Source: Amphiscolops sp. MND2022 (taxonomy: Eukaryota). From it: DNA of 64,000 nucleotides. The position numbers were made by a program, and so were the translations under genes. Below the pieces are notes generated by a model. It saw nothing but the letters and a program-made list of their open reading frames with translations. It ran no database searches and was not told the DNA's origin. Positions 1 to 56,199 of this stretch are shown piece after piece. Each line of letters begins with the position of its first letter. Position 1 is the stretch's first letter. Location: assembly GCA_964187785.1 (NCBI GenBank), contig OZ076409.1:48858001-48922000 (forward strand), read 5' to 3'.

Positions 1-124
1 TAGTAGTAGTAGTAGTAGAAAATCCCACATTGAAGGTATCAACACCGCTGTAACATCCTTGTAGTAGTAGTATTAATAGTAGAAAATCCCACATTGAAGG
101 TATTAACACCGCTGTAACATCCTT
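1..124. repeat. (TAG)n microsatellite end plus a 64-bp tandem duplication
   Basis: Window starts with tagtagtag. The segment agaaaatcccacattgaaggtaYYaacaccgctgtaacatccttg occurs twice, 64 bp apart. Confidence 0.9.
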
Positions 125-246
125 GTTGATGAGAGGAACTCTTGAATGTAAACTTCCTTAAAAAGTTTAGACTGGTCCGATTAACTGTTTAAACTGATTG
201 ATTACACAAAAATAGTGTGAAGAATGTTTGTATCTCAAATTGAGAT

Positions 247-369
247 TCTCAATTCCAAACTCTCACTTTGAAAAAAATTAAATTTATGGTTTCTAGTTTG
301 TATTCAACTTGAATACAAACTAGAAACCATCAATTTAATTTTTTTCAAAGTGAGAGTTTGGAATTGAGA
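247..369. repeat. Long fold-back palindrome, 61-bp arms, centre C308
   Basis: 247-307 is the reverse complement of 309-369 with one mismatch. Confidence 0.95.
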
Positions 370-1064
370 TACAAACATTCTTTTTTTGAAATCTTCTGAT
401 CTTTTTTTGATACCTGTCGTGAGCTTCAGCAAAAACTGTTCCGAAAAATTGTTTTTTCGATTAACTGTACTCTTTTGTACGAAAGAAAGGAAAGTAAAGA
501 CAAGATTAAAAAGCCATTAGTTTAAAAGTAACCCGCTTTTGAGTTTTGTAAACGAACGATTTTCGTAAATCAGGGAAGTTTACAAAAGTGTAGTTCCAAA
601 CTGAACGAACTGTTTCATTCTTTTGTTAACCATTCATCAATCAAATTTTAAGTTGTTACAGCTACTCATGGTTTTCTTTAAGGATGCGAATAAGTCCTAC
701 CTTATAAGGTAACGAAAGTTTCACTCATCATGAGTGATGATCAGCTCTCATTTCCTTATAAGGTACGCGCTGTCCCATTTCTGTGAAAAAGCTACCTTAT
801 TACCTTATTTGGTCAATACGGTGATTCATCGTTGACGAACAAGCGTGCGCGTACTACCTTATTTGGTCAGTAAGCGCCTGCTTTAAAGTATTTCAAGTTT
901 GATCGCGGTAAAATTCCAATTAAATTGGCGGTTATCAGATCTTCTCGAAGAGACCAATTTCCCTTATGAGTAGGCATTGGATTTATTTGGAAATTACAGT
1001 AGTAGCAGAAGCATACAATAAAATATGGATACCATTTGGTTGATGGCTAGACAATACGGAAAAA

Positions 1065-1169
1065 AATACGGAAGAAGCGTTGAATATGTGAAAGTAAAAA
1101 CAGTCTTTACTTCTGAGTCAGAAATAAATACTGTTTTTATTTTCACATATTCAACGCTTCTTCCGTATT
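1065..1169. repeat. Long fold-back palindrome, 52-bp arms, centre G1117
   Basis: aatacggaagaagcgttgaatatgtgaaa ... tttcacatattcaacgcttcttccgtatt, with few mismatches. Confidence 0.95.
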
Positions 1170-2047
1170 CTGAGAAGTACTGAGATTAGTGATTGTTAAT
1201 CGTGTCGCTTCTCAGAAACGTCAATTTAGCTAAGTATTGAATAATTTCTATCAAAATAGATATAAACTTATGTAAGGCGAAATATGGAGAAACATGACAT
1301 TTGGATACAAATAAATCCTAAGCCTACTCATGATTGTTCGCTATGGATGAATCAAATGAAGATGTTTGGAATTTGGCAGTCAGAATTTGTAACAGACAGC
1401 AATATCATTGACTTGTTGGTAAATATGAACGCCAATGCGAATTCTAAAATTGATGATTGACACTTCAATAGTGATTCTTTCTCACCACTGTTACAATACG
1501 CTTCTGACAGCAGAAAGTGGTTCGCAATACTAGCCCCGAGAAGAAAAGTTTAGCTCCGAAATTTATCATTACTAGAAAAGCAAAACGGTTGACCGTTGAA
1601 TCCTCTCCCTTTACAGAAGTTTCAACAGTGTTAGTAGGTAAGATATTGATAGTTTTGTTTCCTTTCCGTAGTATTCAGCTATCTAAAAATTTATTCTCTT
1701 CACTAAAAGCTTTAAATATAGTATATCTTCAAACAAACGCCGGTTTCACCTCCTTTGGAAAAACGAATAATTCTTCTATATTGAATCTGAATCAGTTACT
1801 AAGGAACTGGATATAAGTTGAGTCGGACACTTTTCAATGTCCCTCATATTATCGTCACGGCTGTGATTACGCTCACGGCAGGGACCAAAGTTCAGAAATT
1901 CGATTGAGAGTAAAAACATTTATGGTAAACAAGGTAACTCAGTAAACAAACAAAATCCTGAAATTTGGTCCCTGTCGTGAGCGCAATGTTATTAAACAAT
2001 TCATTAACTTGTCAGCATAACAACAAACACTGTCTGCCAGACAACAG

Positions 2048-2134
2048 TGGCCGACAATAGTTGATAAATTGTTTAATGCGTAAAATTAATCATTAAATTT
2101 ACGCATTAAACAATTTATCAATTATTGTCGGCCA
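2048..2134. repeat. Long fold-back palindrome, 43-bp arms, centre C2091
   Basis: tggccgacaatagttgataaattgtttaatgcgtaaa ... tttacgcattaaacaatttatcaattattgtcggcca. Confidence 0.95.
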
Positions 2135-2411
2135 GACGGTGATGATGAATTGTTTAATGATAAATTGTTTAAACTGAGTTGCAGCTAATTTTGGTCCCTG
2201 GTGTAAGCGCCTGATGTAATAAAACGTTCCTATGACTAAAATGACTCCGATGACTTCTGATCAAGGAAAACGCTAATTTGAAAAATCCATTTTGTAATTT
2301 TTGTATTTATGATACTTTTATAAAAAAAATGCAATAATCATGATCGTAATCATTTGAGGATCACACCATTTGAATATCATATGAAAAGTTACATGACAAA
2401 TGAAGTTGAAA

Positions 2412-3135
2412 TTAGGAGCAATGTTCCTTTACGTGCATCCTATAATTTTCCATTGTCTTGAAATTAACATTGGATACGAGTGTCGCGTGAACATAAATGT
2501 TGCTGTTGAAGTTTAGAGTTGATGTTTTGTCAACTTTGAATTTCAGGGACGTAATGACAGCTGTTCCATCCGCAACTTTGTCCCATTCGTTGCCCAATAT
2601 GTGGTCCCATGCTGATGTTGAAAAAGGGCCGTTGTCTTCTTTGATGGAGAATGTCACTGGGCCATTTGTGACACCGAACGCGTGAATCGTCGCATCAGTG
2701 CAAGGGGCAAAATCTTGCTTGATGTCTTTGACTCTGCTGCGTCCACTGAGGGAATTCATCAGCAAGTTTTTCAGGTTAGAATATGCCCAATACACTAACG
2801 CATGGTCGTCGTATAACGGCGCGCCAGGTGCGTTTTCAACTGCTCCCAGTCTTTTTTTCCGGAGATAACTTACAGGGACTGTTGCGTTACAGGAAGGATC
2901 GTCCTGTTTTTCGACTTCTACGAGAAGTTTCGTCTTTAAATAGTAAATAGAATTAATCTTCCAATCGCAGCCCAAAATATCAACAATGTCTCCCTTGATG
3001 ACGACTCCGGTGCTGATGGGGACACAAACTAGTTCTTTTCGTTCAAGTGGGGTACTTTTGAAACTCTGGGAAGGTCCACCAATTATGGCCTGGGATGGTA
3101 TTGCATCAGGATTACCGAATAATTTATCGTAGTCA
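2412..3135 (-). CDS. Terminal coding exon of an unknown protein (about 240 aa); may be the 3' part of the Tudor-like gene or a separate gene
   Basis: The frame of ORF 2412..2975 stays open upstream to a ttggaatag acceptor at 3136. Composition is protein-like. I could not build a phase-consistent link to the upstream exons. Confidence 0.6.
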
Positions 3136-3432
3136 CTATTCCAAAGTTAAAAAAATATTAGAAAAATGTTTGAAAAGTACTACAACTAACCCATTGAACC
3201 TATTTTGGTTGGTGATATGCGAATGATAATAGGTATTTTTGCCAAAATTGAGAACTCAATTCGCTTCGGAAAAACTGAGGATAAAGCACTTCGGAAACTT
3301 TTCCTAGTAGTATTGTCAAAAACATTTATGTATTCTACAAAAAAAATCAAATCAACTGTACGTGCTTTTTCTCGGGAGGCTGCCAACAACTTGCAACGTT
3401 AAACTTGCAATCATTCAACCCTCATAGTCTAG

Positions 3433-4426
3433 CTAAAAAATAGTTGTACCTCTGTTAAAAAAAATATTGAAGTAGTAATTTCGGTAAGCCTGCTTTACAT
3501 CAATTTTAGTCTTCTTTTTAGGCATCTTGGCGGGGATCGTGGCCTCTATTCCGCGGGTCACCAACACCGTGACTTTTTTGTCACCAAACACCGTCTTTTT
3601 GTCGCATCTTGAAGTAACGTGTTCTTCGTCAGATTCATCCGAGGACTCGGAGTCCTCGGGTTCTTCGAATTTCACTTTTTTGAAAACGGATGCTGCCTTT
3701 TGTGACGATTCGCATCGAAGCTGGTAGTATTTGATGGGGACCAAATTCACATTTTCCAGCTGTTCTTCGAAAAAAACGTTTTCCTCTATTGGTATCACAA
3801 CTGGCGATATCAACATTTCTTTACGGAAGGGATCGTTTTTCATTACGAAACCTTCTTCGATGTCCCCTATGTGTCGGACGCCGTCTTTAGCATGGGCCAG
3901 TGTGTAATGAACTTTATCGTTTCTAACACGTTTTTCTTTCATGTAGCCCAGAACATCAAGGCTCAGTGTCAGTTCAACGCTACGGCTGTAGCTTGGAATT
4001 GGCGTTTCGTTCTTTCGGATGGGCCATTTCTCTGGAAAGTCGTGGAATTTTGGGGGTGTTCTAACGACTCCTGCTGCATGTTTTGAGTTGTAATCTAACC
4101 ATTTGACTTTCGCCTGGAAACAAAAACGTTTTAAAATGTAACTCATTGAACAAAATTCATTAGCAGTAGTGATATTTCTGAAAGCAACAAATGGCAAGTC
4201 TGAAAATCGAATATCTCTAAAACAACAGCGATTTCTGAAAAAAAATTATGAGGATGAAAGTTTCTTAGATTTTTATGTATGTTTATTTGAAGAATATAGG
4301 ATGAAAATTTAATACCTCATGAGTTCGGTGAAATTCGGTGACGTAGGCTAATCGCCAAAGTCCACATTCTTCCTCGAAACATTGCAGGAGTTCTCCGACT
4401 TTGAAATTTTTCGAGAATGTCTGCAT
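3433..4426 (-). CDS. Tudor/chromo-barrel (Royal family)-like protein; exons 4426-4316 and 4113-3433 (263 aa if it ends at 3433)
   Basis: ATG at 4426, phase-0 intron (GAG|gtatt ... tttccag|GCG). Spliced N-terminus MQTFSKNFKVGELLQCFEEECGLWRLAYVTEFHRTHE|AKVKWLDY fits the F-x-V-G-E...W-x-x-A-x-V...V-x-W-x-D-Y barrel pattern. Acidic patch and basic NLS-like KMPKKKTK downstream. Confidence 0.65.
4164..4309 (+). mobile_element. 5' fragment of the MITE family seen at 22131-22816, inside an intron
   Basis: cagtagtgatatt...gaatatctctaaaaca.cagcgattt.tgaaaaa...gaaagtttcttagatttttat closely matches 22131-22283. Confidence 0.75.
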
Positions 4427-5257
4427 TGTCTGTTTCGCACTCGGTTCAAGACTCGGTACTAGTAGTGGGTTTAAGAGGACTAAATTCAGTGTCTTTGTAG
4501 TGAAAAGACTAATATTATGTTGCTCTAAGCAAGCTAAGTTAGCAAAAAGACTTCAACTTGAACTGACTTCAACAAAAATTAGAATAACTTCAACTTAAAC
4601 TTGTCACAGCCACAAAACCAAATTGGGTTAAATTGGTCCAGAATGATATACCGGCCCGCGGGCGTTAATTTGAACCAATATGGTCAAAACTTAGATTTTC
4701 GGATAATCAGTTGAATTGCACAATGGAAAAATTAGTCTATTTAATGATGCTATTCATTACTATCCAATTTATAGTAATGAATGATGCCTCCTATGATGGG
4801 GATGACCATCATTACAAGGCCCACTTCATCCAATATTCAATCTTGGTTGAAACCTAAACCACAAAACCAAATTGGGTTAAATTGTTCCAGAGTATTTTGC
4901 CGGCCCGGGGGCGTTAATTTGAACTTGATTTTCGAATAATGATAATTATGAAGTGATTAGATAATGATGCTCCGTCCTGGCTGACTTCAAGTCACGCTGA
5001 TAAGTCACGCTGATAAGTCACGCTTTAAGTTACGCTGATTGACTATCTTACGCTGCATGACTGAAATCCATTCTACCGGGAAGTGTCTCGTAATTACATC
5101 GTAAAATCGAAAAGAGAATAAGTTTTTGAATTCATCATTTGAAATCAATTCCTCGTCAAGTTCAGACCTCAATTTTATTCAAACTTCTCAACTATATTGT
5201 TGCAACAACCAGTTTACTAATCTCTTGAATTCGAGAATCAAACTGAAATTTTCCAAA
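4427..5257. promoter_or_regulatory. Putative bidirectional promoter between the Tudor-like gene (-) and the SET gene (+)
   Basis: Divergent ATGs at 4426 and 5258. A roughly 66-bp direct repeat (about 4610-4675 and 4859-4924) and four tandem copies of AAGTCACGCTGAT (about 4989-5039). Confidence 0.45.
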
Positions 5258-8917
<3,660 letters not shown>

Positions 8918-9341
8918 AACTTGAAGTGTAATCATTAGTGAAGATGATCTTAGTACAGTAGCGTGATTTTAAAAAAATGCCCGGCCTGCCTCTACACTGA
9001 GCGTTATCATAATTGATCGATTGCATATTTGCTCAATTTCAACTGATTATATATTTTCAACACTTTCAACTGATATCATATTTCAACATATTTTCAACTA
9101 ATAACTCATTTTCAAATAGTTTTTTTTAACCGAAGACAGTATTTTTCTTCCTTACATGACGATGATACGTATGATACTAGTGGAGTCTCTCATAAATTAA
9201 AAAAATGTTTTCAGGACATCCAAAGAAGTTTTTTTTGAATTTTTGAATTACGTTTCGAGTTACTTGGTTTTTTTCTCTGGGGTTAACGCTTTATCGCATA
9301 ACGAGACAACCCGGTAAAATAGGTTTCAGGCACGCAGCTGT

Positions 9342-12867: not shown

Positions 12868-13207
12868 TACCTAAAAACTTACTTATTTTATTACTAATTC
12901 AGTAGACAAGGTCCCTTTGACCGCTTCATTGTCAATTCAGTGCTATCTACTAGGTGAACCAAAGAAAATGGAATGTACAAAAATTTTTCGAGTTTACATT
13001 CCCTCTGTTACCTTATTTACTATTGAATGATCTATGACAGTTGTCTCAGGAATGATCTATGAGGACGTATGACTTCCTTGACTTCCTGGAATAGTGTGAC
13101 TTGTTGTGAGTTGTTGGATGTATATATTTGACAATCATTTTATAGTTAATTTCATACAATATTGAATGGTGTATAACTTATGAGCGAATTTTTTCAGTTG
13201 ATATCAA

Positions 13208-16200
13208 ATGGCAACACTGCCGACCACGCCATCAACGTCTCGTCGAACGACACCAGCGAAAGTCCCATGCGGCCAAGGTTCGATAACAATTTTTTTGTGA
13301 TCAAGCTGTAACGTAATCAAGCTGTAACTTTTTTCACGGAAAAGTTTAATCTGACATATGGCATTCCTTTTAGGCACTTGTGACGTTGTGGACAAGCTGT
13401 CCAACATCCTACGCCACCGCAAAGTCTGTCCCCGAATGCCACGAGAGCAGTTCAAGCTCATGGAGAGAACGTGCCAGCTCTGCGGCCAGATCATTTCCGC
13501 CAAAAAACTGCTGAAGAAGCACTACAATACAAAGTATTGTAAGGAGCAGCAAAAGCGGAAAGCAGAAGGCCTGCCTACCCGAATGTACCAGTACGGTTAG
13601 TCAATACAATGTATGTTAAAAATTGATCAACTTGTAACATTTTAAACTCAATGATTTTGAAAAAAGTCTAGGTCTCAAACAAAAAGTGTGTTTTTATTCA
13701 TGTAACTTCTATGTTACAGCAGCTGCAAAAGGCTTGACGCGGAGGCCTAACTTATGCTACGGCAGAGGTTGTGGCAAGTCATATGTTTGCCCTTATGACT
13801 TGCGCGTGCACCTTTTGAAGAATCCTCAATGCCAGGAAGGAGCGAATGTGAGTGCCTGTCCTATTTTTTTCTCTTTAAGAACACATGTTGAATGATTTGA
13901 TTGACCATTTGATTCTCGAAACGCCGTGTTTTAAACGGTGACAATGTGACTGGAAATCCGAATGAGTCATTTTATCGTGGCAACTGTTTAGGCTGCAGTA
14001 TCTTTGGGCTCCGATTCGTCTACTAGTAGCAACACTGACGAGCGATTCAGGCCAGAAGATTTCAACCACATTCCTTCTGATGTGTTTGGGTCTGATGGAT
14101 TTTTCAAGTTCGCGATGGAAGTGCCCCTCGACTACAAGTTTCCTGTAGCTCAATGGGAAGGCAACGTTGACGACCATGTCGTCAAATTCAATTCCCTGAT
14201 GAGACACAGTGTGCCTCTGTTGTGGCGTGGAGGTGTCAACCATTGCCATGGTTTGAAGCTGCCTCAAGTGGAAGAACTCGCTTTCACTGAAGTTGTCCAA
14301 GAGCTTCTAGTCCCCCAGAAGCTACAAGCAAGTGCAGCAACCATCAATGTCAAGTCGGCAAAACTTGGAGAAGTAAGTCTTTGGTAGAATTACTTTCAAT
14401 TTGAAGCTTGTATTTTTCGTAAAATATCTGGAACAACTGCAATTTGATCCCTGGCGTGAGCTCATTTTCCAACTTGGACAAGTCTTTGGTAGAATTACTT
14501 TCAATTTCAAATTTTCAAGTAATGCTTCAAGTTGAAGCTTGTATTTTTCGTAAAATATCTGGAACAACTGCAATTTGATCCCTGTCGTGAGCTCATTCTC
14601 CAACTTGGGCAAGTTGAATTTGTCGAACAACTGCATTTGAACTATTCTAACAATGAGAAAGTTGTCCGTCTTATTCCCGTCTTAGTCACTTTATGATCAT
14701 TTCATTTCAGAGTCGTGACCTCAGTCTCGACGAGTTCAAGCAGGAGCTCATCAACGCCGACAGAAGCAGCGTTTACTATCCTTTAAACGCTATAGACATC
14801 GCCATGCAGCCAAAGGTAAACAACATTGAATGAGCTCCTTTGATTTGATGGAAAACGCAAATCCACTGAAAAACGACTTTTCTTTTTCTGTTTTTCCCCA
14901 ACCCCCTGTTTGCTAGTAGTTGCGTACAAATTCGACTTTGAGGATTTTATTCAACATAATGCACATTGTTTTGAAACAACTTCAACTTATATTGATTTTT
15001 TTGTCTTTTCAGTCCATCTACAGCGTGCCAACGATGATAAAAAAGTCGTCAGTGAACCACCTTGTGGACGAGCTGGTGAGTAAGTCAGCAGAACCGTTCT
15101 CAGTAGCGACTTCATACTACTTGCTGATCTCCAACGATGGTCGTCAAACAACTTGGCACACGGACTTCAGTTCAACATCTGTCTTTTATACAGTCTTGAC
15201 TGGGTCCAAGACCTTCTTTCTGGTTGCGCCAACTGAAAACAACATGAAGTTGTTCAATGCCTGGTCCAAACAAGAATGGGACGACATGTAAGTTGAATTT
15301 TTTCACCAAGGAATTTCAGCTTTTGTGTTCATCTATTTTTGTATTTTTTGCATCATTTTGCATCACGGGCCATCATTTCCGTACGTGTTTTCATTGTATT
15401 TGCGAAATTTTCAACTTTCAATGCACTATATTGTTTTTGCATCGCCGAATATTTTAAGAATAGTCGCTTAGAGTTCCAACAGTTTTCGTTTTAGGCCAAC
15501 ATTTTTTGGATGCCACAAAAGACTGGAGGGGGGTTGCCTCAGGGTTACTCTTAATCCGGGCGACGTTTTCGCCATGCCGTCTCAGTACATCCATACAGTC
15601 CTCACAAGTGGAGACTCTGTGGCAATAGGGACGAATTTCCTTTCAGAAGGTCATTCGAACCAATTCATAAAGGCGATCATTGAAGAAGACTCCACCAGGG
15701 AGCATGAGAAGTTTCCGGGCATGTTGGAAATGCTAGCTATTTTGATGCTCAAAGCATCAGAGAGATGCATGATAACTCCGGACTTCCTTCGTCTTCACAG
15801 AGCCATTGAGAATCGATATCAAGAAAGTGAAGCTGTTGCTGTGAGTTGTATTTTTTAGTTCACAATCGTTTAGAATCAAACTATGTTATCGAATTAAGTA
15901 TTTGTATAATGAAGCCGTGTTGTGACTCACAACAGGGACCAAAACTGAAATTGGTAATCATCATGAATAATGTTGATGATGACGTTGTGGCTCACGACAG
16001 GGACCAAAATTAAAGGTGGTAATGATTACCAATTTTAATTTCGGTCCCTGTCGTGAGCCACAAGGTCATCATCAGCATTATTTGTTGATGATCAACAAAG
16101 TTGATCAAATAGCTTGGTGAGTTATCACGAGTTTTGTTTCAGATTTGCCCCGAATTCAGCAAGGAGAGACTCGTTTACAATATTTGCTCGCGCAAAGACT

Positions 16201-16774
16201 TCGTAAACGATGTTTGTGTCAGCGCTTTCACGGAAACGGCCTCAAAAAGGGCATATCTTCTTTGCCCCAAGCCTTGCTTCAGAAGGAGGAACTGGTTTAC
16301 AAACGAGGACGGCGTGAGGGTCCCGAAGGAAGCAATTTCTGAGGAGCACCTCACTTTCTTTTGCCGAAAACCTGATGTTGACGAGCCGAATCGTGATATT
16401 TTAATCAGCTATGAGGAAGCCATCACGTATGTTCACCCGCGACCGTCACAAACTGTCAGAGGTTTGCACAAAATGCCGAAAAGAAAAACCCTCGTTCAAG
16501 ACCGTGGTAAGTTTGCTTATTTCAGTTACATCCTGGTTGTTTCGTCTTAATATACATAGTGGTAATGTAAGTGATAATATTCAACTCAAAACTGGTCACC
16601 TGGTTGAACATCCGTAAGGCTTACATTTGATTTTCGTATTTCCTAAAAAGACTTCAAAATGAAATTAATGGAGTGGTAATCGAATTCAATGTTTTTGTTT
16701 CAGAATTCAGACCATCTACTGATCGTTACGTTGCTTCGATCATGAGCCACCATGTCCCTGCATACAGCTTGTAG
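13208..16774 (+). CDS. Three zinc fingers plus JmjC histone demethylase (KDM2/KDM7-like); 9 exons: 13208-13277, 13374-13595, 13720-13847, 13992-14372, 14711-14815, 15013-15287, 15495-15840, 16143-16506, 16704-16774 (653 aa)
   Basis: All 8 introns are GT-AG and phase-consistent; total 1962 nt. JmjC motifs YLLISNDGRQTTWHTDFSSTSVFY..GSKTFFLVAPT and GDVFAMPSQYIHTVLT..VAIGTNFL keep HxD...H and the 2-OG-binding T and K. N-terminal C2HC-type fingers CGQGTC..RHRKVC, CQLC..KHYNTKYC and CYGRGC..VHLLKNPQC. Confidence 0.9.
14374..14636 (+). repeat. Imperfect tandem duplication in a JmjC-gene intron; each unit carries the 19-bp motif
   Basis: ttgaagcttgtatttttcgtaaaatatctggaacaactgcaatttgatccctg.cgtgagctcatt occurs twice, 131 bp apart. 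Confidence 0.9.
15967..16081. repeat. Fold-back palindrome, 57-bp arms, centre G16024, in a JmjC-gene intron
   Basis: ataatgttgatgatgacgttgtggctcacgacagggacc ... ggtccctgtcgtgagccacaaggtcatcatcagcattat. Confidence 0.93.
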
Positions 16775-16942
16775 TTGCGTACAGACTGAGTTGTGCTTAA
16801 GAAGTTCTCGATCATTGTTAACTGAACATGTTGAACTTTCTTGTCTCCGAGTTATTTGTTGTGCTCAGTAAGTTGTACACTGTGGCTCGGTATAAACTTG
16901 TAGCTTGAAAAACTGCTCTGGATTTTTCGAATGACCGTCAAC

Positions 16943-17302
16943 CAGGGGTGTTAAATATTGCATTGCAATACTATTGCAATACTAATAAAACAATCTTTTG
17001 TTATTCTGAATTTTGTTGAAACAATAATTGCAATTATTGTGTCTATGAAAAAGATTGTTTGAAGAACCAATCAAATCAATTTGTTGATCAAATTAACATC
17101 CGAAAATTGTTCGTTGATCATTATTAGTTTGACTGAAAAGTCCGCCAAATTGGAAGTATTTGGTACCCAACTCATGTCTCCGAATTCTTTCCTTATTGTG
17201 AAAAATCAACAATGTATTGTATTTGATAACGTTCTGAAAATAATTATTGTATACAATTTTATTGCAATTATTGTGACCTAGAATAATTTTTTAACAACCC
17301 TG
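16943..17302. mobile_element. hAT-type MITE (360 bp)
   Basis: TIRs CAGGGGTGTTAAA / TTTAACAACCCTG; 8-bp TSD CCGTCAAC at 16935-16942 and 17303-17310. Confidence 0.92.
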
Positions 17303-18633
17303 CCGTCAACAACCTGGTATTTTTTGTTCATAGCAAATTCAGCAAAACATTCAGCAAATTATTACGGCAAAGTCCAATTACCTCATAGTCTAGTTAAAAT
17401 CTTTATTTTAACTAATAATTTCACGGTAAAAAAATTGTTGTTGACCATTATTCAATTATTAGGTTACTATTCATTCAATAAGTTAATGTGTACAATTTAC
17501 CTTCGATTTATAGTGCATTCAAAGTTTGTACAGCCTTGATCGTTTGTAAGTTTGTAATGTTCTGAATTGTATCAACTGTGTTTTGGACAATTACTGTCGG
17601 AAATGTCGAGTAGTTGTTCCCAAAAAAAGAGGGACATCTACCGTCGGAAATATCGGGTGGTTGTTTCCAAAAAAAATATCAAATACCGTCAAAATCAATC
17701 ATTGATGGCCGCCGGAAATCATCGGGTCATCGGAAGGGAGTTTCCAATTAACTTCGCCTTTGTGCTCCCTTGCATCGTATGTTTTCTCTTTCAGTACAGG
17801 CCGAGTATGAATAATAGAAGCAAAAGCCTCTTTGTTAAGGAGAAAAACAGTGTTTAAGGTTGTTTAAGAATAGAAAAACGGTCAAACGTCCCAATTCAGA
17901 TTCAGTTGTCTGTAACTTTTTCAATTTTCGTCTGAAAAATTTCAAAGTTAAACTAGTGTAAACTAGAAAAAAATTTAAGAATAGTTTCCTTCTGACAATT
18001 TTACAAATTTTCAATCGATTCCGAAAAAATCGAGCCTGAAAATGCTCGGGGGGTGTTTTCCTAATCACAGTACTAGAGCTCTCAACCAATGAAATGAACA
18101 TGTGGGCATCAATTAGCCAATGATATCTATTCGTTCGTTCCGCCGGCGGCTGCTGTTTTTCAAAAGTTGATAAAAGTACTTCAAGTTGACTCAAGTTTGT
18201 TATGTTTGCTATAGACCAAGACTCAAGTTGTTTTAATTATTCTTGACGCAGCTCGGAGAAGCAACATAAATACAGGTTACCTTTTGATCCGTCGTGAGCA
18301 AATATAAAACAGAGTTGCTAAACCGTATTTTAAGTTAAGTACCAGCTCTGAGAAACTGTCTCTGTTTTCAACCACAGTATCCTTCTTTTCTTAGGATGTG
18401 TTTTCGGAAAGAAAACAACTTTCATTGAATATTGTATTTTGAATACAAAAATAGCACCAGTTTTATAATGGAATTTATGAACATTATAAAATCACAAAAA
18501 AATAATTGAAAATAAAAAATTTATCTCTTTTAGAGCAAATAAATAATGAGTTTTGAAACTTTAAAGTTTCAAAAATAGTGGAAAAGTCGTTGAAATCGTT
18601 TCAACGAAACTTTGAGTCCCTCGGGTTCAGACA

Positions 18634-19215
18634 TTATTTCAGCCTGAGCAGGCATCCTTGTTTCCTGCAGAGTGGGCACTTCACCCAAAGGGCACGATCA
18701 GTGCTTTCCCTGTGAATCACAGTGATCAAAATTTTCGAACGATATCTAGAATGAGTTTGTTTTGTAACCACGTGTGTACCAAAAATTTCAGGAATACAAA
18801 AATGTAAAGGACACGCCTCAAAAAATTGATCAGTGAAAATTATCAGAAAGGAAAAGCGAAAACAGCTTCAATAACAATTTTTCAAAGCAAAGTTCTGTGA
18901 AACTTACCTCTCAAGCACTTTGATCCAGGCTTGACGGCACTGATTGCATATCGCGTGTTTATCATGGAGAATCCAAAAACGCGAAAAGATCTTCTCTCCA
19001 CAGACAGCGCAAAGCATTTCCAGTTGGTTAATGTGTTTCAGGTGGTCAATAAGTACAATGATTTTTGAAAAGATATATCAGTCTTGTCACACGGTTGTTT
19101 GAAGATCGAATGGCCAACAATCGGCCCGGGACATATAGAACACATCGTACGAAAGATTTGAACTTTATTTTGTCATTATCTTGTTTCTATGTACGAACAA
19201 CTGGCTTTGTTTCAT
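18634..19215 (-). pseudogene. Spliced RING-finger gene not on the ORF track; exons 19215-18908 and 18709-18634; three in-frame stops upstream of the RING
   Basis: AG|gtaagt ... ttcacag|G gives MLCAVCGEKIFSRFWILHDKHAICNQCRQAWIKVLERESTDRALWVKCPLCRKQGCLLRLK*. The same frame from ATG 19215 contains TAA, TGA, TGA. A 61-aa product from ATG 19017 remains possible. Confidence 0.75.
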
Positions 19216-19516
19216 GACTTGACAACTTGCAAGTCCTTTTAATCCTTTCACTTAGTAACCACCTAGTTAATTTATAACCTCTGTACCTGTAACAAATAAC
19301 CGTCTCCACTTATTATTTGGTTTAGTAAACCAACGCGGTACTTCGGTAGTGCCACTTTCATTCATTTCAAAATAAGATGATAGTCAAGATGATTCTTTCA
19401 TCTCAGTTATTATGTCGATATAATTGTATTTGTTTCAATGGTTTCAAAAAATGAAATAATTAATACTTTACAGAATTGAATGACGTACATATGTATGTTT
19501 ACAAAGTTTATGGAAT

Positions 19517-19714
19517 TAACAAAGTTCTTTCATTTATCACTACTAAAAAATTAATAACGTACATATGTGGTTTTGATCCCTGTCGTGAGCAACATCAAGT
19601 TGTAACAAATAGTCTAACAAAGTTCATTCATTTATCACTACGAAAAAATTAATAACGTACATATGTGGTTTTGATCCCTGTCGTGAGCAACATCAAGTTG
19701 TAACAAATAGTCTA
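19517..19714 (+). repeat. 98-bp tandem duplication carrying an extended motif module that recurs near 23221, 23324(-) and 24441
   Basis: aaaaattaataacgtacatatgtggttttgatccctgtcgtgagcaacatcaag is near-identical at five positions. Confidence 0.92.
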
Positions 19715-19794
19715 TACGAATCTAAAACTCTGTTTGAGTCTAAAACTCTCTATCAATCTGAAATGTCTATTACCAAATCTCCAAGTACTTAAAC

Positions 19795-20116
19795 GATTAT
19801 TTAATTACCACTGCAGTAAATTTAGAATTGAGGCGTGTTGAATAAGGACAACTGCCAGTGAAGGTGCCACAGGCTGTTCAGTGAAGGTTTGTCGAAAACT
19901 GCTGAGAAGTGCTTACACCGTGTAAGCATTAATTAACACCATTAACACCGTGACGATTAATTAATTACCACTGCAGGAAAGGGTAGATTTGAGGCATTTT
20001 AATTATGACTATTCAAATTTTGTCGATAACCGCAGCAAAGTCCTTACACGATTAACTAATTACAATTACGAATTGAGGCTTTCTAATAATGATTTCTGAA
20101 TTTCTGTCGAAAACTG
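19795..20116 (+). repeat. Three diverged direct repeats upstream of ORF 20317
   Basis: taattac...ttgaggc...tgtcga.aac.g units near 19795, 19955 and 20050. Confidence 0.7.
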
Positions 20117-20316
20117 AAAAGTCGATTCAGTCAAACCTTTTACAACGATACTGTCAACTTGCTTTCATATCTCTCGCAATCATCAACTTCTGTTTTCATC
20201 AAATCCTAATTTCATAATCAACTTCTGAACTTGTCAAAAACAGCAAAGTCAAATCAGTCAATTCTTTCGCATCAATATTATCAACCTTCTTTCTCTCGCA
20301 ATCATCAATATCTATC

Positions 20317-20754
20317 ATGTTCGATCCCGCAGCAATGCCAATCAGGTCGTGTATTCGTCCAATAGATGAAATGATCTCAAACTGTGGACTACCACACAGA
20401 AAAAACGTGCGTTTTGCTGACTCAGCACCAATCTCGGACTCAACCACCAATCAACTTGAAACAACTCCCACATATCCGAGAGCTTGGAGAATCAAAAGAA
20501 GGGCACCCATTCCTGAAACTCCAACTCCACTGGCACCCACTCTAATGCACCCACTCCACCAAAAAGCAGTCACTACGGTAGGATCAAAAACAGTGAGGTT
20601 CTCTTTCATAGAAAGGGCTGTATCACCGAATGGAGAAGTATCAGAGTCAGTCATTTCCTTCAATGACTCGGAAACCAATCCTTGTGACGAATACTGGAAA
20701 ACTGGGGCTCTCGACGACAGGCCGTACATAATGAACTGCCGAACAACACGATAG
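20317..20754 (+). CDS. Small (145 aa), probably disordered protein with two RVxF PP1-docking motifs
   Basis: Intronless ATG-to-TAG ORF, Pro/Thr/Ser-rich, with RKNVRF and KTVRF and an upstream RSCIR (SILK-like) segment. Confidence 0.55.
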   Translation: MFDPAAMPIRSCIRPIDEMISNCGLPHRKNVRFADSAPISDSTTNQLETTPTYPRAWRIKRRAPIPETPTPLAPTLMHPLHQKAVTTVGSKTVRFSFIERAVSPNGEVSESVISFNDSETNPCDEYWKTGALDDRPYIMNCRTTR

Positions 20755-20763
20755 AATATAAAG

Positions 20764-20822
20764 TTATTATTCTGCTCTTCTAGTACAGTTGACACAACTG
20801 TACTAGAAGAGCAGAATAGTAA
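20764..20822. repeat. Fold-back palindrome, about 28-bp arms, centre C20793
   Basis: tattctgctcttctagtacagttg-aca-caactgtactagaagagcagaata. Confidence 0.92.
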
Positions 20823-20835
20823 TTTTAAATGTAAC

Positions 20836-21201
20836 CAGGGCTACCGAAAAAATAATGGATCAAACCATTATCTTTGATAAATAATTTATTTCTAGTATAT
20901 TTCCATTCAGATAATTTATTTCTGTCATTCGAAAAATACCATAATTATTTCGGAATTTTCCATTATTTTAGAAATAAAATGATCTACAAAGCAAATAAAG
21001 GCGACGCTACCACCAAGGCAGCTTGCCGTATGTAGGCTATTGTAAATTTCTAACATATGCGAAATTATTTCATATAATTTAAAATTATGGCCATAATTTA
21101 TTTATTTGAGAGAATATTGTTATTTATGGGCATTAAATCTAAAATAAATCTATAAATATAAAAATAATGAAAAAAACTAAAAGAATTTTTCGGTAGCCCT
21201 G
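20836..21201. mobile_element. hAT-type MITE (366 bp)
   Basis: 16-bp perfect TIR CAGGGCTACCGAAAAA; 8-bp TSD AATGTAAC at 20828-20835 and 21202-21209. Confidence 0.95.
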
Positions 21202-21237
21202 AATGTAACATCGGTTCTAAAATCATTTCTGAATGTC

Positions 21238-21720
21238 GACGAAACAGTTTGGCTTCAGTACAGGGGTGTTCATTATTGTATTGTAATTTAAATCTAAGCC
21301 TACGAAAATCAATAATTCAATTTTCCACAAAAATCAATAATTGAAATTATTGTGCTCAAAAACACACTGATGAAGAAACTTAAATTGCTCTGCGAACTTT
21401 GAAAGTTTCTTTCTATAATAAGTCATCATAAATCTCGCTCGAGAGGATTTTTTTCAAGTAACCAACTTTTTCGATTTGTTAATGTTACACTGCAATTAAT
21501 AATTTCCCCCACAGGATTACGAGCAATCAATAATTGTTGGAAAACAGAGACGTAAAATCAATAATTGTAATTGTTTAACTTAAATTGAATTGCAATAATT
21601 GTTCTTTGCAATAATTAGTTGAACACCCCTGCTTCAGTATCTCAGTATCGGATGCGAATTTTACCTCCGGGGTAAAATTCGCATCCGATACTGAGATACT
21701 GAAGCCAAAACTGTTTCGTC
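21238..21720. repeat. Fold-back palindrome (centre C21668) whose left arm is split by the hAT MITE
   Basis: 21632-21665 pairs with 21671-21704. The right arm continues gaagccaaaactgtttcgtc, matching gacgaaacagtttggcttc at 21238-21256 on the far side of the MITE. Confidence 0.88.
21261..21631. mobile_element. hAT-type MITE (371 bp), related to 16943-17302
   Basis: TIR CAGGGGTGTTCA; 8-bp TSD CTTCAGTA at 21253-21260 and 21632-21639; internal CAATAATTG-rich repeats. Confidence 0.95.
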
Positions 21721-21879
21721 CAATCAGATTTTAGAACCAACCAACGAGTCGTCATCTGGAAGGACAAATTTTTCTGATGATCAACTTGCAAAGCGAACAA
21801 AAGATCGGTCGTCTCGACACGAACTTCTAGACCTATTACACAGTCTGAAATCCAACCTGTCAAACTTGAAAGCGAATGG

Positions 21880-23130
21880 TCAATGTGTGAACAACTTCTT
21901 GACTCAAGGACGACCTTCGGTGGACGAAATTGAAGATCTTTCCTACCCACTTGAAGAATGGATGGAGGAAATTTAACCCTTGGTTTCCCACTTCAATGCC
22001 CAAAACTTCGCAACCCTCAGTGAGGAGAATTTGAAGCAAGAACAAAACAAATGCCTGGAACTTCAAGAAGGGGTTCAAGCTCAGATAATCTCAATTGGCA
22101 AGTTACAGAAGAATATGTTGAGGCCTTGTACAGTAGTGATATTATTAAAAGCAACAAAAGGCAAATCTCAAAACCGAATATCTCTAAAACAGCAGCGATT
22201 TTTGAAAAATGATAAAGTGAAAGTTTCTTAGATTTTTATCTAGTTTACAAATATGTTTGTTTGAAGACTATGCGATGAAAATTGTAGAAGTTACGATAGG
22301 CCATTTTTAGCCAAATTTAGGTCAAAATTGAGGTTTTTCTCACTTTTGGGCTACTTTTCCCCAAAATTGTTGAAAAAATTTTTGTTCAATTGACCCCCCT
22401 GATTTAACTGAAGCTCCTGATATGTTTTGATTTAGAAATCATCTTAAAATCGTAAAGAAAATGCGCTGTAAAATTGAACTTTTTCGAAAATACATGTATT
22501 AAGATACGATTTTGAAATATAACCACTTAAAACAAGCTCGTACTAATACAATTTACAATATTTTCGAGAAAAAATTATATTGTCAGATTCAAAATGTTTG
22601 GGAGAATTTTTCTGTTAAAATTGTTTTGAAATCAAAAAATTGTAAGTGGGTCAAAAATTCAAAAAACTAAAAAATGATGTTTTGGAAATCGCTCTCGACC
22701 AATGAAATGAGCGCGTGAGACGTTATTTAGCCAATGAGATTTGTTTATTTGCTCTCTTTCCGCGTGCTTTGTTGCTTAATAATATAGTTGTTGTAGTAAT
22801 AATAATATCACTACAGTACAAAACCATTCAAAACTCACAGATTCAGAACAGCACACAAGATAACGAATCAGTGGCTAGTTTGAGCGACCGCGTGATCGGA
22901 ATCATGAACAGATACAACGCCATTTCTTCCAACGTGGAGGAAAGAGCGCAACAACTGTATTTCGACATAGAGGAGTCCTTACAGGTATTGAGATTGTGAT
23001 TGTTATGTATCCGAAGAAACTGAAAGAACAGCTGAAGAATCTATCGCAAGTTAGAACAAATCTGGAGGACACCGGTGCCGAAATTGACAAGATCAAGGCC
23101 AACGCTGAGCAAATGTTGAAGAGTAATCCT
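21880..23130 (+). pseudogene. Disrupted coiled-coil-like gene interrupted by a TA-flanked MITE and frameshifts
   Basis: Removing the MITE joins EEYVEALY|KTIQNSQIQNSTQDNESVASLSDRVIGIMNRYNAISSNVEERAQQLYFDIEESLQ. Helical E/Q/L-rich fragments lie on both sides in shifted frames. Confidence 0.5.
22131..22816. mobile_element. Tc1/mariner-type MITE (686 bp)
   Basis: TIR CAGTAGTGATATTATTA / TAATAATATCACTACAG (one mismatch), flanked by TA on both sides. Confidence 0.8.
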
Positions 23131-23190
23131 CACAATCGAATTTATTATTTCGAACAATATATTGTCAATTCATGATATTATTCATTTATT

Positions 23191-23407
23191 AAATAAAAAT
23201 ATAATTGATATTATTCAATAAAAAATTAATAACGTACATATGTGGTTTTGATCCCTGTCGTGAGCAACATCAAGAAACGTTGTAACTGGAGTAACTATCA
23301 TAGTTACTCCAGTTACAACGTTTCTTGATGTTGCTCACGACAGGGATCAAAACCACATATGTACGTTATTAATTTTTTATTGAATAATATCAATTATATT
23401 TTTATTT
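23191..23407. repeat. Perfect fold-back palindrome, 108-bp arms, centre C23299
   Basis: 23191-23298 is the reverse complement of 23300-23407; each arm holds the 19-bp motif. Confidence 0.96.
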
Positions 23408-23682
23408 CTGATGATAAAAAAATTATGATGAAAAAAATTATATTTTTAATTTATGATAAATTGAACAAGTAATTTTTGTCGAGCACAAATTCTAGCTGAG
23501 ATTACAAATCTCAACGAAAAAAACTTTTGCCCATTTTGATGTAGTTTTAAAGAGGCTCTCAGTTTGGGGATCACATAGTGTCGCCCGTAACAAGACCCAC
23601 GACGCGAACGTGGCCTCTGAAGGGTCTCAAAATCTAATTTACAAATTCTACAAAATTATACTAACTACACTTTTACAAAAAT

Positions 23683-23898
23683 TTAATTATACAAAATGCT
23701 ATTTACAGGTAATCTACAGTAAGGACATCTAACGAGGTCTGCACTCGCTAAACTATCTAAATAGTGTTTTATACACTCTCTACAAGCTAAATGTAATTTA
23801 TGTTCTAGGTGAAAACTTTGTAATTCTACTATTCTAAAGTTTTCGTAGCAGATCATGCATTCTTTATTCTTCGAAGCAGCAGCTTTCTTCACCCTCAT
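23683..23898 (-). pseudogene. RING-finger coding segment; upstream part appears frameshifted or decayed
   Basis: CMIC-x12-HLEHKLHLACREC...VRCPYCR. Upstream sequence to about 24139 has in-frame stops and a probable frameshift near 23865. Confidence 0.75.
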
Positions 23899-24169
23899 CG
23901 ATTGGGCTATTCAGAATGTTGGCTGTTGATTTAGAATGGCGAAAGGATAGAAGGAAGAATAAGAATAAGAATGAAATTTTAAAGACTTGTAGAGATTTTA
24001 GAGATTTGTATAGAGCGAGGGAAGAAATGAGTGAAAAAATGAAAGACTTCACGAAAAAGTTTCAATTTCGTAAATCCTTTCACGAACCATGCCGGGACTG
24101 AACGAAATTTTCACCGATACCGAACACCTGTGACGTCATAATTAACTGTATTGCATTTCTGATGCGCGC

Positions 24170-24302
24170 TAACCTTTCAGCTATATCGCCTTGAAAGAAA
24201 TCAATTACCATTCGCAAATGTTGAAGAGTCACTCTTCAACATTTGCGAATGGCCCATTCCCGGGGAATTGATTCCTTTCAAGGCGATATAGCTGAAAGGT
24301 TA
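24170..24302. repeat. Fold-back palindrome with an internal bulge, centre C24230
   Basis: taacctttcagctatatcgccttgaaag...ccattcgcaaatgttgaagagt-c-actcttcaacatttgcgaatgg...ctttcaaggcgatatagctgaaaggtta. Confidence 0.93.
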
Positions 24303-25122
24303 TAATAAATAAAAATAAATAAAAATAAAAATAAATGAATTAAAATATACAAATAATGAATTCGATTGTGAGGATTCATGATATTATTCATTTATTCAAT
24401 CGATTAAAAATTAATTGATGTTTATTGATATTATTCAATAAAAAATTAATAACGTACATATTTGGTTTTGATCCCTGTTGTGAGCAACATCAAGAGAAGT
24501 TGTAACAAATAATCTATACGAAGTTGAAACTTTATCAAAACGAAAACAGTAGTTTATGGAATACCGATCTTGAATTATTGAACTAAAAACGAAGTTTGGA
24601 CCATGTGCCTTATCCTCCCTCAGATAAATACTGTTTCTTATCCAACAACACCCCCCCATCCAAAACTTCCCAAACAAATGAAAGTATGTCTCATAATGAA
24701 GGGGCGGTTGCTTCATTGAACTTGGTAATTTTGGTCCCTGTCGTGAGCACTTCCTGTAGTCAGATTTACTGTTTATGCGATTTGATACTGTGTAGGCGAA
24801 TCAAGCAGTGTAGTTACGAGTCGGCGTGTGTAGCTCACCAGTAAAAACCCGTAATTGCCAGAACTATGTGTAAATATGAGATGCACAGTGTAGTTAGTCA
24901 AATTGCTTAAACTAGTCATATGGTGTAAGCTAGTCAATTACTGTACTATCCAATGGTGTAAACTAGTCAACGTACGTAGCAAAATCAACGAGTGTAACGG
25001 CCTATCAATGCGCGTAATGTGAGAAAAGTGTAAAACTTCCAAAAAAAAATATTCGCGCTCTGATTGGACAAAAATCGAACTAGCAGGATCCTGCTAGTTC
25101 GTACCGGCATGTGTATCGTAAT

Positions 25123-55447: not shown

Positions 55448-56199
55448 TGTCTCAGTGTGATGTAACAGTATACGATACTTACCGCATTGCCATGTTATCT
55501 CTTAAGAATGAATTGCAACAGAACCTTTCAGAAGGTAAATAAACAACACAACCAATCCTGTTGTTCATGCTACTCAATGATTGTTTCATTCGCTCTTTCG
55601 TCAGTCATTTCAAAGTTTCAGTCTAAAAACATTTTTTGTTGGTTCATTACTGCTATTACGAGCGAATATTGTCTTATTCGTATGCAGATTTTATGCTTTC
55701 AGCAGCTTTACGGTTTGCAAATTTTGGCCAGTTGGTGTTCACTCAACGGAATTCACTGTGTGCATCATGTTCCAGCAGCTTTTTTGAAAAAAAAATAGCA
55801 TCAACTGATATCTATATGTCTACCTTGACAGCAACAGAACGAGTTTCGACGGTACTGTGGGGTCTTGTTCCATTTGCGCAACAAGTCTCTCTTCAGTAAA
55901 TTCTGAAAGGAAGATTGCGTGTGAAAGTTATGGAAAGTTTTGGTTTTTTGGGATCTTCAAAAATATAATAAAGATCATTGGCGAAGGTTAACAAAAATGA
56001 GGCTCTTGTCCTTAGCTTCAATCGAATACTTTCAAAAAACTTTCAAAATTTAAATTTTAAATTGATATTATTAAGTGTGAAATCTACTTGAAATATAAAA
56101 ATTTGAAAATACAAAATTTGTCATTCAATTCGAATTGAAACATTTAATAGGGAATGAATTAAGTATTGAATATTGTACATGGGCACTGTCGTCGACCAA

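Follow-up and report, generated by a model that had tools for sequence, protein, structure and literature searches.

A 27-kb DNA transposon family of Amphiscolops sp. with a RAG1-fold transposase and a conserved set of SET, JmjC and barrel genes

Introduction

KDZ transposons, in which chromatin domains are fused to fungal transposases, are said to have been described by Iyer et al. in 2014. The resistance of animal transposons to histone-based silencing is a largely open question, and the element-encoded counter-measures, shown or proposed, in the literature consulted come from plants, fungi and oomycetes. The VANC protein acts on family-specific repeated motifs in the non-coding parts of its element (PMC5735166), and the SET cargo of oomycete transposons has been read as counter-silencing (PMC12730594). 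The latter article also defines the CMCT clade by CA..TG termini and 2-5-bp TSDs, says that C(2)C and H(3-4)H motifs are common to all CMCT lineages, and gives CATCA ends and 2-3-bp TSDs for PlavakaB. Enlarged En/Spm families of 16-20 kb with 4-5 ORFs occur in a red alga (PMC6431247), and TSD length is a labile trait, even among Transib elements (10.64898/2026.08.26.747230).

The DNA analysed here (the window) is a stretch of 64,000 nucleotides of contig OZ076409.1 of Amphiscolops sp. MND2022, and its region of interest is one 26,927-bp cut-and-paste DNA transposon, called family A, with the termini CATTAC...GTAATG. As in VANDAL/VANC (Arabidopsis), HarbingerS and MuDR elements with SET (oomycetes) and TET/JBP elements (fungi), the cargo contains chromatin modifiers, and with VANDAL/VANC it also shares family-specific non-coding motifs, function being shown for VANC while the present element is known from its sequence; however, in the sources cited, those systems have one modifier each and non-animal hosts, whereas writer-, eraser- and reader-like proteins stand together here. 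CMC/CMCT (EnSpm/CACTA, Mirage, Chapaev, Plavaka, ESTA, Lanisha), compared by description and Pfam, is similar in CA..TG ends, a TSD within 2-5 bp and RAG1-like similarity, but here C(2)C and H(3-4)H and any Pfam transposase match are missing, the host is an animal, and a SET, JmjC and barrel kit takes the place of TET/JBP. RAG1, ProtoRAG (BbRAG1L) and Transib share with the element its CA..TG termini and an RNase H D-D-E core that has an E-x-x-E pair at its last catalytic position. Unlike in this group, there is no C2C/H..H zinc site, the identity to it is 10-13%, the TSD has 2 bp and not 5 bp, the transposase ends in a BRCT domain, the size is 18-28 kb and three extra core genes are present.

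Results

Boundaries, insertion and copy number

The element is delimited by the following features (positions from window base 1):

1..25123, + strand: in-window part of the family A transposon, its termini matching those in other copies
25102..25123, - strand: right-end TIR with 13 perfect bp (CATTACGATACAC) and imperfect pairing out to about 22 bp
25124..25125, + strand: 2-bp TSD (AT; AT also before the left terminus), within a 184-bp satellite
7210..7300, + strand: internal copy of the left terminus, 91 bp, 97%, in the YR-SET intron

The initial annotation had suspected a single mobile element that stops at about 25 kb. Numerous syntenic copies at dispersed sites, with common ends, TIRs and TSDs, bear out the single element, and its right end (25123) also agrees, but it begins outside the window, with the left terminus at contig position 48856197, 1,803 bp before window base 1. 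The right end was common to 20 of 20 right ends examined, each with different flanks, and common ends were found in 40 scored right ends and 40 scored left ends. Besides the window copy, 12 of 13 other copies had a 2-bp TSD of varying sequence (the exception was AC/AA). This count is based on 20 right ends, 19 of which had a left-end stretch; 3 without element sequence were dropped, which left 16 end pairs, and 3 of these had no left terminus in the stretch read, leaving the 13 that were compared.

Family A occupies at least 159 loci in the 1.07-Gb genome, and the best copies are about 99.5% identical. The 83 scored transposase copies (98-99%) are spread over all 13 large contigs, and every one of them is accompanied by a JmjC exon 3.9-6.7 kb downstream, while a SET exon lies upstream in 72; about 900 further candidates are outside this count. 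Many copies contain stops and frameshifts. The best explanation of family A is an animal family of giant, autonomous DNA transposons that move by cut-and-paste, and the data show, or come close to showing, that it was recently active or expanded and that a RAG1-fold DDE transposase moves a 27-kb CATTAC-bounded unit with a 2-nt insertion stagger. A host cluster of single-copy genes or a segmental duplication is ruled out, since the copies end sharply at the same points and differ in their flanks and TSDs, and a transposase that moves alone with short TIRs is ruled out for the 83 scored copies by the linkage to JmjC and SET. A viral or Polinton/Teratorn nature is ruled out as well, with no relative among 44 candidates from viral contigs, no PHROG match below E 0.01 for 12 element proteins, and neither capsid nor polymerase among the element ORFs scanned.

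Dispersed motif and fold-backs

406..24748, both strands: 19-bp motif TTTGGTCCCTGTCGTGAGC, 21 copies in the window and 2 upstream
244-372, 1065-1169, 2048-2134, 7400-7508: fold-back palindromes 1-4
15985-16063, 20756-20830, 21631-21705, 23187-23411: fold-back palindromes 5-8

The 19-bp motif, which had been thought private to the element, has 23 matches (at most 3 mismatches) inside it, none in 57,074 flanking bases and none in each of 30 shuffles. It lies in introns, intergenic and subterminal DNA, near both element ends, and within three of the eight fold-backs. Fold-backs with arms of at least 25 nt number 8 inside the element and 0 outside in an 84-kb scan, so that their expected halt at about 25 kb was confirmed for this arm length. 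One looser 43-nt fold-back pair is present outside the element (61421-61510).

Transposase

9823..12867, + strand: RAG1-fold DDE transposase with C-terminal BRCT, by Pfam BRCT_2, the fold of a homolog and D-D-E conservation

The transposase has at least two exons, one near 9.8-10.67 kb and one near 11.04-12.87 kb, and the 5' limit given is that of these two; the first Asp is in the exon ending at 10670, and the second Asp and Glu are in 11039-12867. The window copy is frameshifted near 11.3 kb (519 codons), and 21 of the 30 best transposase loci have an open frame of at least 617 codons. BRCT was the only Pfam family found (BRCT_2, E 7e-5 in the window protein); it was detected in 23 of 51 family members, with a BRCT structural match of Z 10.6, and none of the 51 matched a Pfam transposase model at E 0.5. 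The catalytic triad is kept in all alignment rows covering each column (D187 25/25, D270 36/36, E566 40/40).

The RNase H fold was seen in the model of a homolog (P0035), not of the window protein. This model aligns to RAG1 (6dbi) with a VIA-align Z of 17.4 (rmsd 3.6, 401 aligned), to BbRAG1L with Z 16.8 and to HzTransib with Z 12.0; its Foldseek E value is 1e-7, with a structural-alignment identity of 10-13% to the RAG1/Transib group. In the transposase alignment there is no conserved Cys pair after D270, and H(3-4)H is absent, with T-P-Y-K-x-K at the expected H..H site; other His residues are invariant (H356 43/43, H570 40/40). The label of a canonical Transib-type element is not supported, as the zinc motifs are missing, the fold is nearer to RAG1 than to HzTransib, and the TSD has 2 bp in place of the 5 bp anticipated (12 of 13 other copies and the window copy). 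Since TSD length is labile within Transib, the 2-bp TSD weighs less than the missing zinc motifs. The ends, CATTAC or CAATAC in four families, also differ from the RSS-like CAC(A)ATG terminus of Transib. As for ProtoRAG/TransibSU, the identity is 10-13% compared with more than 30% to the RAG1 core, no RAG2-like gene, Chapa or N-terminal RING domain was seen in the element, and the element ORFs scanned had no kelch or PHD match. There were no CACTA or Chapaev structures in the PDB match lists, so the fold comparison covers neither.

Chromatin-related genes

All the parts listed in the initial annotation (transposase-BRCT, SET, JmjC, barrel, two RING-like genes and RVxF) are present. Homology and GT-AG sites were the basis of the exon models, and for the barrel gene the exon limits were set by homology:

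2415..4430, - strand: multi-beta-barrel ("Tudor-like") gene, three exon blocks at about 4430-4318, 4113-3440 and 3146-2415
6216..7186, + strand: tyrosine-recombinase-like (YR-like) exon, probably spliced to the SET exon; GT/AG at 7186/7609
7610..8917, + strand: SETD8-like SET exon, with Pfam SET and PDB matches; 124 scored copies
13200..16870, + strand: C2H2-zinc-finger-JmjC gene, about 8 GT-AG exons by homology; 150 scored copies

Host SETD8/KMT5A and KDM2A/KDM7A/PHF8 are the best solved-structure sequence matches of the SET and JmjC proteins, with catalytic residues in register; unlike the host genes, those described here are multi-copy inside TIRs and have a YR-like or C2H2 fusion, not PHD/CXXC. 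The region 7589-8551 matches Pfam SET (6.6e-10) and, in 14 of 14 PDB matches, SETD8/KMT5A, and the motifs GRG, DYH and the final DY are present. In the window copy a (CTA)105 expansion at 8556-8870 gives the SET protein a poly-Thr tail. The SETD8 NHS is intact in families C and D (see below), while in A and B an NY stands in place of N-H, and this change may leave the family A enzyme weak or inactive, as judged from its residues. In 4 of 4 families, Phe occupies the position of the switch Tyr of SETD8, before the final D-Y.

The proposal of a SETD8-like protein fused to a YR-like domain is upheld for SET, whereas the YR label is weakly supported. The YR-like exon has 123 scored copies and is probably spliced to SET, to judge from the splice sites; its Atlas hits, DUF3504/integrase at 0.87-0.88, are leads only, the exon and its profile had no Pfam, PHROG or PDB match, and homologs were found in 0 of 2129 candidates of a longer-length search. 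Against R-K-H-R-H/W-Y, which we take to be the catalytic pattern, its residues appear degenerate.

For the zinc-finger-JmjC protein, the JmjC part is substantiated by PHF8, KDM7 and KDM2A as the best PDB matches of its exons and by the presence of H-T-D, K and H, and the H-x-D, K and H positions show no variation among the 4 families; the product is a predicted demethylase of KDM2/KDM7 type with an intact catalytic triad. The two C2H2-like exons upstream have weak Pfam support (E 0.07 and 0.14).

The barrel gene is a core gene in 4 of 4 families. The model from a sister family contains a barrel of SH3 type, with BAH as its best match (Z 7.1) and PWWP at Foldseek E 0.003. This one modelled barrel (pLDDT 70-84) resembles those of BAH, PWWP, Tudor and chromo domains at Z 5-7, a match of a common fold, below Z 8 and in a model of mean pLDDT 47. 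The N-terminal barrel keeps F, W and F and had no Pfam or PDB match, the barrel profile found nothing meaningful in PDB sequences or Pfam, and the Atlas gave no usable match for the protein. The gene and its barrel stand, while the Tudor label is weakly supported and, for a putative methyl-lysine reader, a lead only. In 2 of 17 metagenome contigs a barrel gene adjoins transposases of 28% identity (E 3.8e-7 and 1.2e-5); SET or JmjC occurred in none of the 17 loci, on contigs of 1-7 kb that are too short for linkage.

Accessory genes

18634..19077, - strand: RING-HC-like gene 1, two exons; frame 18907-19077, Pfam E 0.01
20317..20754, + strand: RVxF ORF, 139-145 aa, with two RVxF-type words read directly
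21695..23175, + strand: coiled-coil-like fragments, partly deleted or duplicated in another copy
23683..23910, - strand: RING-like gene 2; frame 23686-23910, zf-C3HC4_3 E 2e-4

Both RING-like Pfam matches are below the Pfam cut-off. Gene 1 is kept at 94% in a diverged family A copy, and gene 2 is absent from the one diverged copy compared (L110). The RVxF-type words, presumably PP1 docking sites, are both kept in one copy of only 74% identity that has a stop elsewhere. The RING and RVxF genes had been counted in one cargo set with the others, but they were not found in families B-D (one copy each) and, with RING-like gene 2 missing from the diverged copy, fall outside the conserved kit.

Sister families

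Three sister families have transposases 69% (B), 29% (C) and 30% (D) identical to that of family A, and measure 26.4 kb (TSD TT), 19.9 kb (AT) and 17.8 kb (TC), respectively. One copy of each was read, those of B and C being decayed. All four genes (transposase-BRCT, YR-like-SET, zinc-finger-JmjC and barrel) are present in each, in other orders and orientations; the termini CATTAC/CAATAC with a 2-bp TSD extend across the four families, and every family has its own dispersed non-coding motif. Between A and B the exons align and the non-coding DNA no longer does; dS is saturated in 12 of 14 exon comparisons, and dN/dS is 0.2 and 0.3 in the remaining two. SET, JmjC and barrel are kept in three more families, and this conservation strongly supports a fixed, obligatory and selected kit down to about 30% transposase identity.

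Discussion

We tentatively propose, as a possibility that falls short of an even chance, that these families form an undescribed superfamily-level lineage of giant animal transposons, with a zinc-less BRCT transposase that would be a cousin of RAG1 and an obligatory four-gene, sequence-targeted chromatin machine that would co-evolve with the family motifs, an animal counterpart of VANC at the histone level. It is somewhat unlikely that the lineage is already catalogued (animal EnSpm/CMC, Chapaev-like, or an unpublished Repbase Reports group) and only its anatomy is new. CA..TG termini with 2-5-bp TSDs are the CMCT definition (PMC12730594), TSD length is labile within Transib (10.64898/2026.08.26.747230), and our literature search, in which no description of such an element was found, had Repbase Reports outside its scope; but 0 of 51 members match a Pfam transposase at E 0.5, the CMCT-wide C(2)C and H(3-4)H motifs are absent, and the literature that was searched is silent.

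To hypothesize on function, we give about an even chance to the kit being a sequence-targeted chromatin tool that acts mainly on the element itself, a VANC-like self-directed anti-silencing. Binding to the family-specific dispersed motif would fall to the zinc-finger-JmjC protein, to the seemingly inactive YR-like domain of the SET protein, or to both. Removal of silencing-linked di- or mono-methyl-lysine marks would be the task of the KDM2/7-type JmjC, and the SETD8-like enzyme would add an H4K20-type mark of its own. The barrel protein would serve as reader or scaffold, and BRCT would connect the transposase with break repair. Phe at the SET switch position speaks for di- or tri-methylation; since H4K20me2/3 usually acts as a repressive mark, this does not fit simple anti-silencing. 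The dispersed motifs may just as well serve the transposase or a promoter.

The kit could instead serve transposition, with H4K20 methylation, barrel and BRCT steering repair of the large excision break or opening nucleosomal DNA of donor and target, and with the motif as a site for the transposase or an accessory protein that helps to pair ends 18-28 kb apart. BRCT is found across the family (BRCT_2 in 23 of 51, Z 10.6), the closest SET is an H4K20 enzyme and the H4K20 methyl mark recruits 53BP1, in distant organisms, too, a barrel gene keeps company with the transposase, as a second transposition protein would, and the motif is near both ends; nevertheless we consider it unlikely, as the motifs extend beyond the ends over the whole element, introns included, and strand transfer has no obvious need of a separate zinc-finger demethylase. 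Improbable, too, is an action in trans on the host, by broad silencing suppression, germline timing, or methylation, ubiquitination or dephosphorylation of defence factors: the accessory RING and RVxF genes point to host manipulation at the protein level and SETD8-type enzymes have non-histone substrates, but those accessory genes were not found in B-D, and family-specific motifs within each element suggest targeting in cis. The genes might finally be passive captured cargo or hitchhiking pseudo-enzymes, given that N-Y replaces N-H in the SET proteins of A and B, that the YR residues are degenerate, and that many copies have stops and frameshifts. Four genes kept and rearranged across families, saturated dS, the invariant JmjC triad, and A and B exons that align where non-coding DNA does not are a signal of selection that largely refutes this reading, which we regard as very improbable.

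Self-directed anti-silencing is directly testable here, because each family is a specificity control for the others, and the young high-copy families offer intact enzymes and family-specific motifs. The transposase is also an outgroup for the origin of RAG1, with the same fold, no zinc site and a different stagger, and since it naturally moves 18-36-kb cargo, it is of interest for the delivery of large gene payloads and for chromatin editing directed by sequence. Shorter derivatives of family A occur as well, e.g., one of 7.6 kb.

Family A as a mobile element

The window covers G000:C1:48858001-48922000, and its transposon (family A) is inserted into a 184-bp AT-rich satellite with a 368-370-bp higher-order structure, which occupies window positions 25124-50124 and at least 18 kb upstream (fetched loci L031 and L032), a total span of at least 43 kb around this copy. 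CATTACGATACAC breaks the satellite at a point 1,803 bp before the window starts; past GTGTATCGTAATG at 25123 the satellite continues, and the 26,927-bp element in between is flanked by AT at either end. The 1.07-Gb assembly (13 large contigs) was searched, and all copy and locus counts for family A are floors: at least 83 scored matches of the transposase exon at 98-100% identity (979 candidates), at least 124 scored copies of the SET exon, 150 of the JmjC exon and 123 of the YR-like exon, while the merged transposase, SET and JmjC lists give at least 159 loci. In 83/83 scored transposase copies the JmjC exon follows downstream at 3.9-6.7 kb, in the same orientation, and the SET exon is listed upstream of 72 of them (71 at 3.3-3.7 kb). 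The scored ends, 40 right and 40 left, coincide with the same termini or lie a few bases off, and the right terminus abuts different flanks in 20/20 fetched right ends. Both termini were present in 13 of the 16 end pairs examined, and 12 of these 13 show a 2-bp duplication whose sequence is not fixed (AT, AA, CG, CT, AG, CC, TA, AC). Eleven of the 13 two-ended copies measure 26.7-27.9 kb; the remaining two are 7.6 and 35.9 kb long. The initial annotation had proposed a single mobile element and dispersed syntenic copies as its check; the common termini, varied flanks, duplications and dispersed loci bear this out, and all the parts it had claimed are present.

The family has expanded in a recent burst, with mean identity of 99.5% over the 30 best-scoring transposase loci, and a frame of at least 617 codons is kept in 21 of these 30. 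Both values suggest that family A is young and probably still competent; the window copy itself has a frameshifted transposase. At L034 (G000:C12:54266930-54267230, another contig of the assembly), the right flank matches by eye the element's own left arm, as in a nested self-insertion. An internal 97% copy of the left terminus lies in the YR-SET intron (window 7210-7300; spliceosomal introns are present in the window), and it seems to be a recent gain, because young copies have 1,373 bp between YR and SET and some older ones 1,246 bp. A shorter element without the barrel gene could start from this internal terminus. The spliceosomal introns, with a TRP-like channel fragment elsewhere in the window, make an animal the most likely host.

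The transposase

The transposase profile matched 353 clusters (50%-identity representatives) at E 0.001 or better. No Pfam transposase model matched any of 51 aligned members at E 0.5, and BRCT_2 matched 23 of the 51. The structure was predicted for P0035, a full-length homolog about 30% identical to the main exon of the window protein (mean pLDDT 87.5, pTM 0.84). Foldseek placed RAG1 top (E 1.3e-7), and VIA-align gave RAG1 Z 17.4 (rmsd 3.6, 401 aligned), BbRAG1L 16.8, HzTransib 12.0, P element 11.3 and BRCT 10.6. The DDE triad D187, D270 and E566 is invariant in the rows covering each residue (25/25, 36/36, 40/40), with all three in family A. By the model, the transposase would be nearest to RAG1 among solved structures, in match lists that held no CACTA or Chapaev structure.

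The earlier Transib assignment is not supported in its canonical form, as the duplication is 2 bp instead of the 5 bp typical of Transib (PMC4411706) and the model is nearer to RAG1 than to HzTransib; duplication length can vary within Transib (10.64898/2026.08.26.747230). Termini and duplication agree with the CMCT clade, described with CA..TG termini and 2-5-bp duplications in PMC12730594, but a defining CMCT motif is missing, so that the enzyme works like a RAG1/CMCT transposase without it. Family A is a real giant DDE transposon family of a RAG1-fold lineage that is apparently uncatalogued. In the literature searched, which did not extend to Repbase Reports, we found no animal element with such a transposase or such a kit of SET, JmjC and barrel genes, and it is somewhat doubtful that the lineage is already catalogued elsewhere. 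Transposons with a single chromatin modifier are described in PMC12730594: oomycete HarbingerS/MuDR elements carry SET, fungal ones TET/JBP and plant ones VANC. The passages of PMC6431247 on multi-ORF 16-20-kb En/Spm families mention neither JmjC nor SET domains.

Sister families and the conserved kit

Sister transposon families in the same genome, one copy of each read
Family B: 26,436 bp; CATTACGATACAT ends, TT duplication; transposase 69% identical to A
Family C: about 19.9 kb; 21-bp TIRs, AT duplication; transposase 29% identical to A
Family D: 17,832 bp; perfect 22-bp TIR starting CATTAC, TC duplication; transposase 30% identical to A

Each copy carries the four core genes (barrel, YR-like-SET, transposase and zinc-finger-JmjC). 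In family B the zinc-finger-JmjC gene is moved and inverted, and most non-coding DNA no longer aligns to family A; the family C copy is decayed and locally duplicated, with tandem duplications of the transposase and of one end; in family D the transposase frame has 1,017 codons. Many copies of C and D have SET close to their transposase. Of 14 exon comparisons, 12 have saturated synonymous sites and the remaining two give dN/dS values of 0.2 and 0.3. The kit, together with the transposase, is a deeply conserved and selected four-gene set. Beyond A-D, at least two other related transposase families, 53-56% to family C and with frames of 1,037 and 1,175 codons, have multiple near-identical copies on many contigs, which is a radiation of the lineage within one genome.

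Families B and C lie 264 bp apart (G000:C1:50860093-50906698; loci L103, L100-L102, L104, L105), enclosed by a sequence that we take, from its motifs, to be LTR-retrotransposon-like.

Outside this genome, 17 short metagenome contigs encode transposases of 28% identity; the barrel gene was found upstream in two (E 3.8e-7 and 1.2e-5; a third is weak), and SET and JmjC in none of these contigs, which span only 1-7 kb. In L085, a metagenome contig from another organism, the barrel gene (401-2109, minus strand) is divergent from a 28%-identity transposase, as in family A. The barrel protein may be a second protein that the lineage cannot do without.

SET, JmjC, barrel and accessory genes

The SET exon has 14 matches among solved structures, every one of them SETD8/KMT5A. 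It retains GRG, DYH and the final DY; N-H-S is intact in C and D and is N-Y in A and B, where SETD8 has N-H, and all four families have Phe at the SETD8 Tyr position. The SET open frame varies widely among copies (mostly about 342 codons, up to 696), and a (CTA)105 expansion (window 8556-8870) adds a poly-Thr tail. The JmjC exons best match PHF8, KDM7A and KDM2A, and their H-T-D, K and distal H align with those of the matches; 4/4 families keep H-x-D, K and H unchanged.

"Tudor-like" and YR-like are weaker labels. The model of the barrel protein, from a sister family, has low confidence as a whole (pLDDT 47); a single barrel in it (pLDDT 70-84) resembles BAH (Z 7.1) and also PWWP, Tudor and chromo barrels, at common-fold level. 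In the N-terminal barrel, F, W and F are shared by five sequences, and it had no match in the databases searched. The tentative label of the YR-like exon follows from Atlas leads of 0.87-0.88 (DUF3504, integrases) and from a motif pattern.

RING1, RING2, the RVxF ORF and the coiled-coil pieces are accessory and were not found in the single copies of B-D. RING2 is missing from a diverged family-A copy, in which RING1 and the two RVxF words are retained. The RING and RVxF genes given in the initial annotation thus belong to family A but not to the core; RING and C2H2 matches score below Pfam cut-offs.

Motifs and the possible role of the kit

The private 19-bp motif proposed earlier has 23 matches (three mismatches or fewer) within the element, none in 57,074 flanking bases and none in each of 30 shuffles. 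One scan found eight fold-backs inside the element and none outside; a second listing gave one looser pair outside. Each sister family has a dispersed non-coding motif of its own, inside the element in 29/29 and 35/35 cases for B, 11/11 for C and 13/14 for D, counts that are partly by construction, because each motif was chosen for being the commonest word at its locus. At four mismatches, the B/C and D loci contain no match to the family-A motif; by eye, a CA(C/T)G-N6-7-CAAA frame seems common to one motif of B and to those of A, C and D. This resembles VANDAL/VANC, where, as PMC5735166 describes, element-encoded proteins bind family-specific repeated non-coding motifs and remove silencing.

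An anti-silencing role of the kit is plausible and directly testable. To hypothesize, the zinc fingers or an inactive YR-like domain would read the motif, lysine methyl marks on the element would be erased by JmjC and written by SET, and the barrel protein would serve as reader or scaffold; on this whole scheme we are evenly divided. A simple anti-silencing story is weakened, since the Phe switch speaks for the higher methyl states of H4K20, which are usually repressive, and since N-Y may impair SET in family A itself. That the kit helps transposition or repair, or acts in trans on host factors, is in either case rather unlikely, and passive cargo is highly improbable for a set of genes under selection.

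Other observations

A tRNA-like, possibly SINE-head sequence (by eye) lies within the element about 700 bp upstream of the window (L031:9260-9350), close to a 60-230-bp repeat that families B and D also have and that may be a small insertion. On the other side of the satellite, the window holds:
54968-55448 and 57791-58195: MITE-like inverted pair
56200-60300, minus strand: host ion-channel gene fragments (Pfam Ion_trans E 0.005, weak), which we take to be a TRP-like channel
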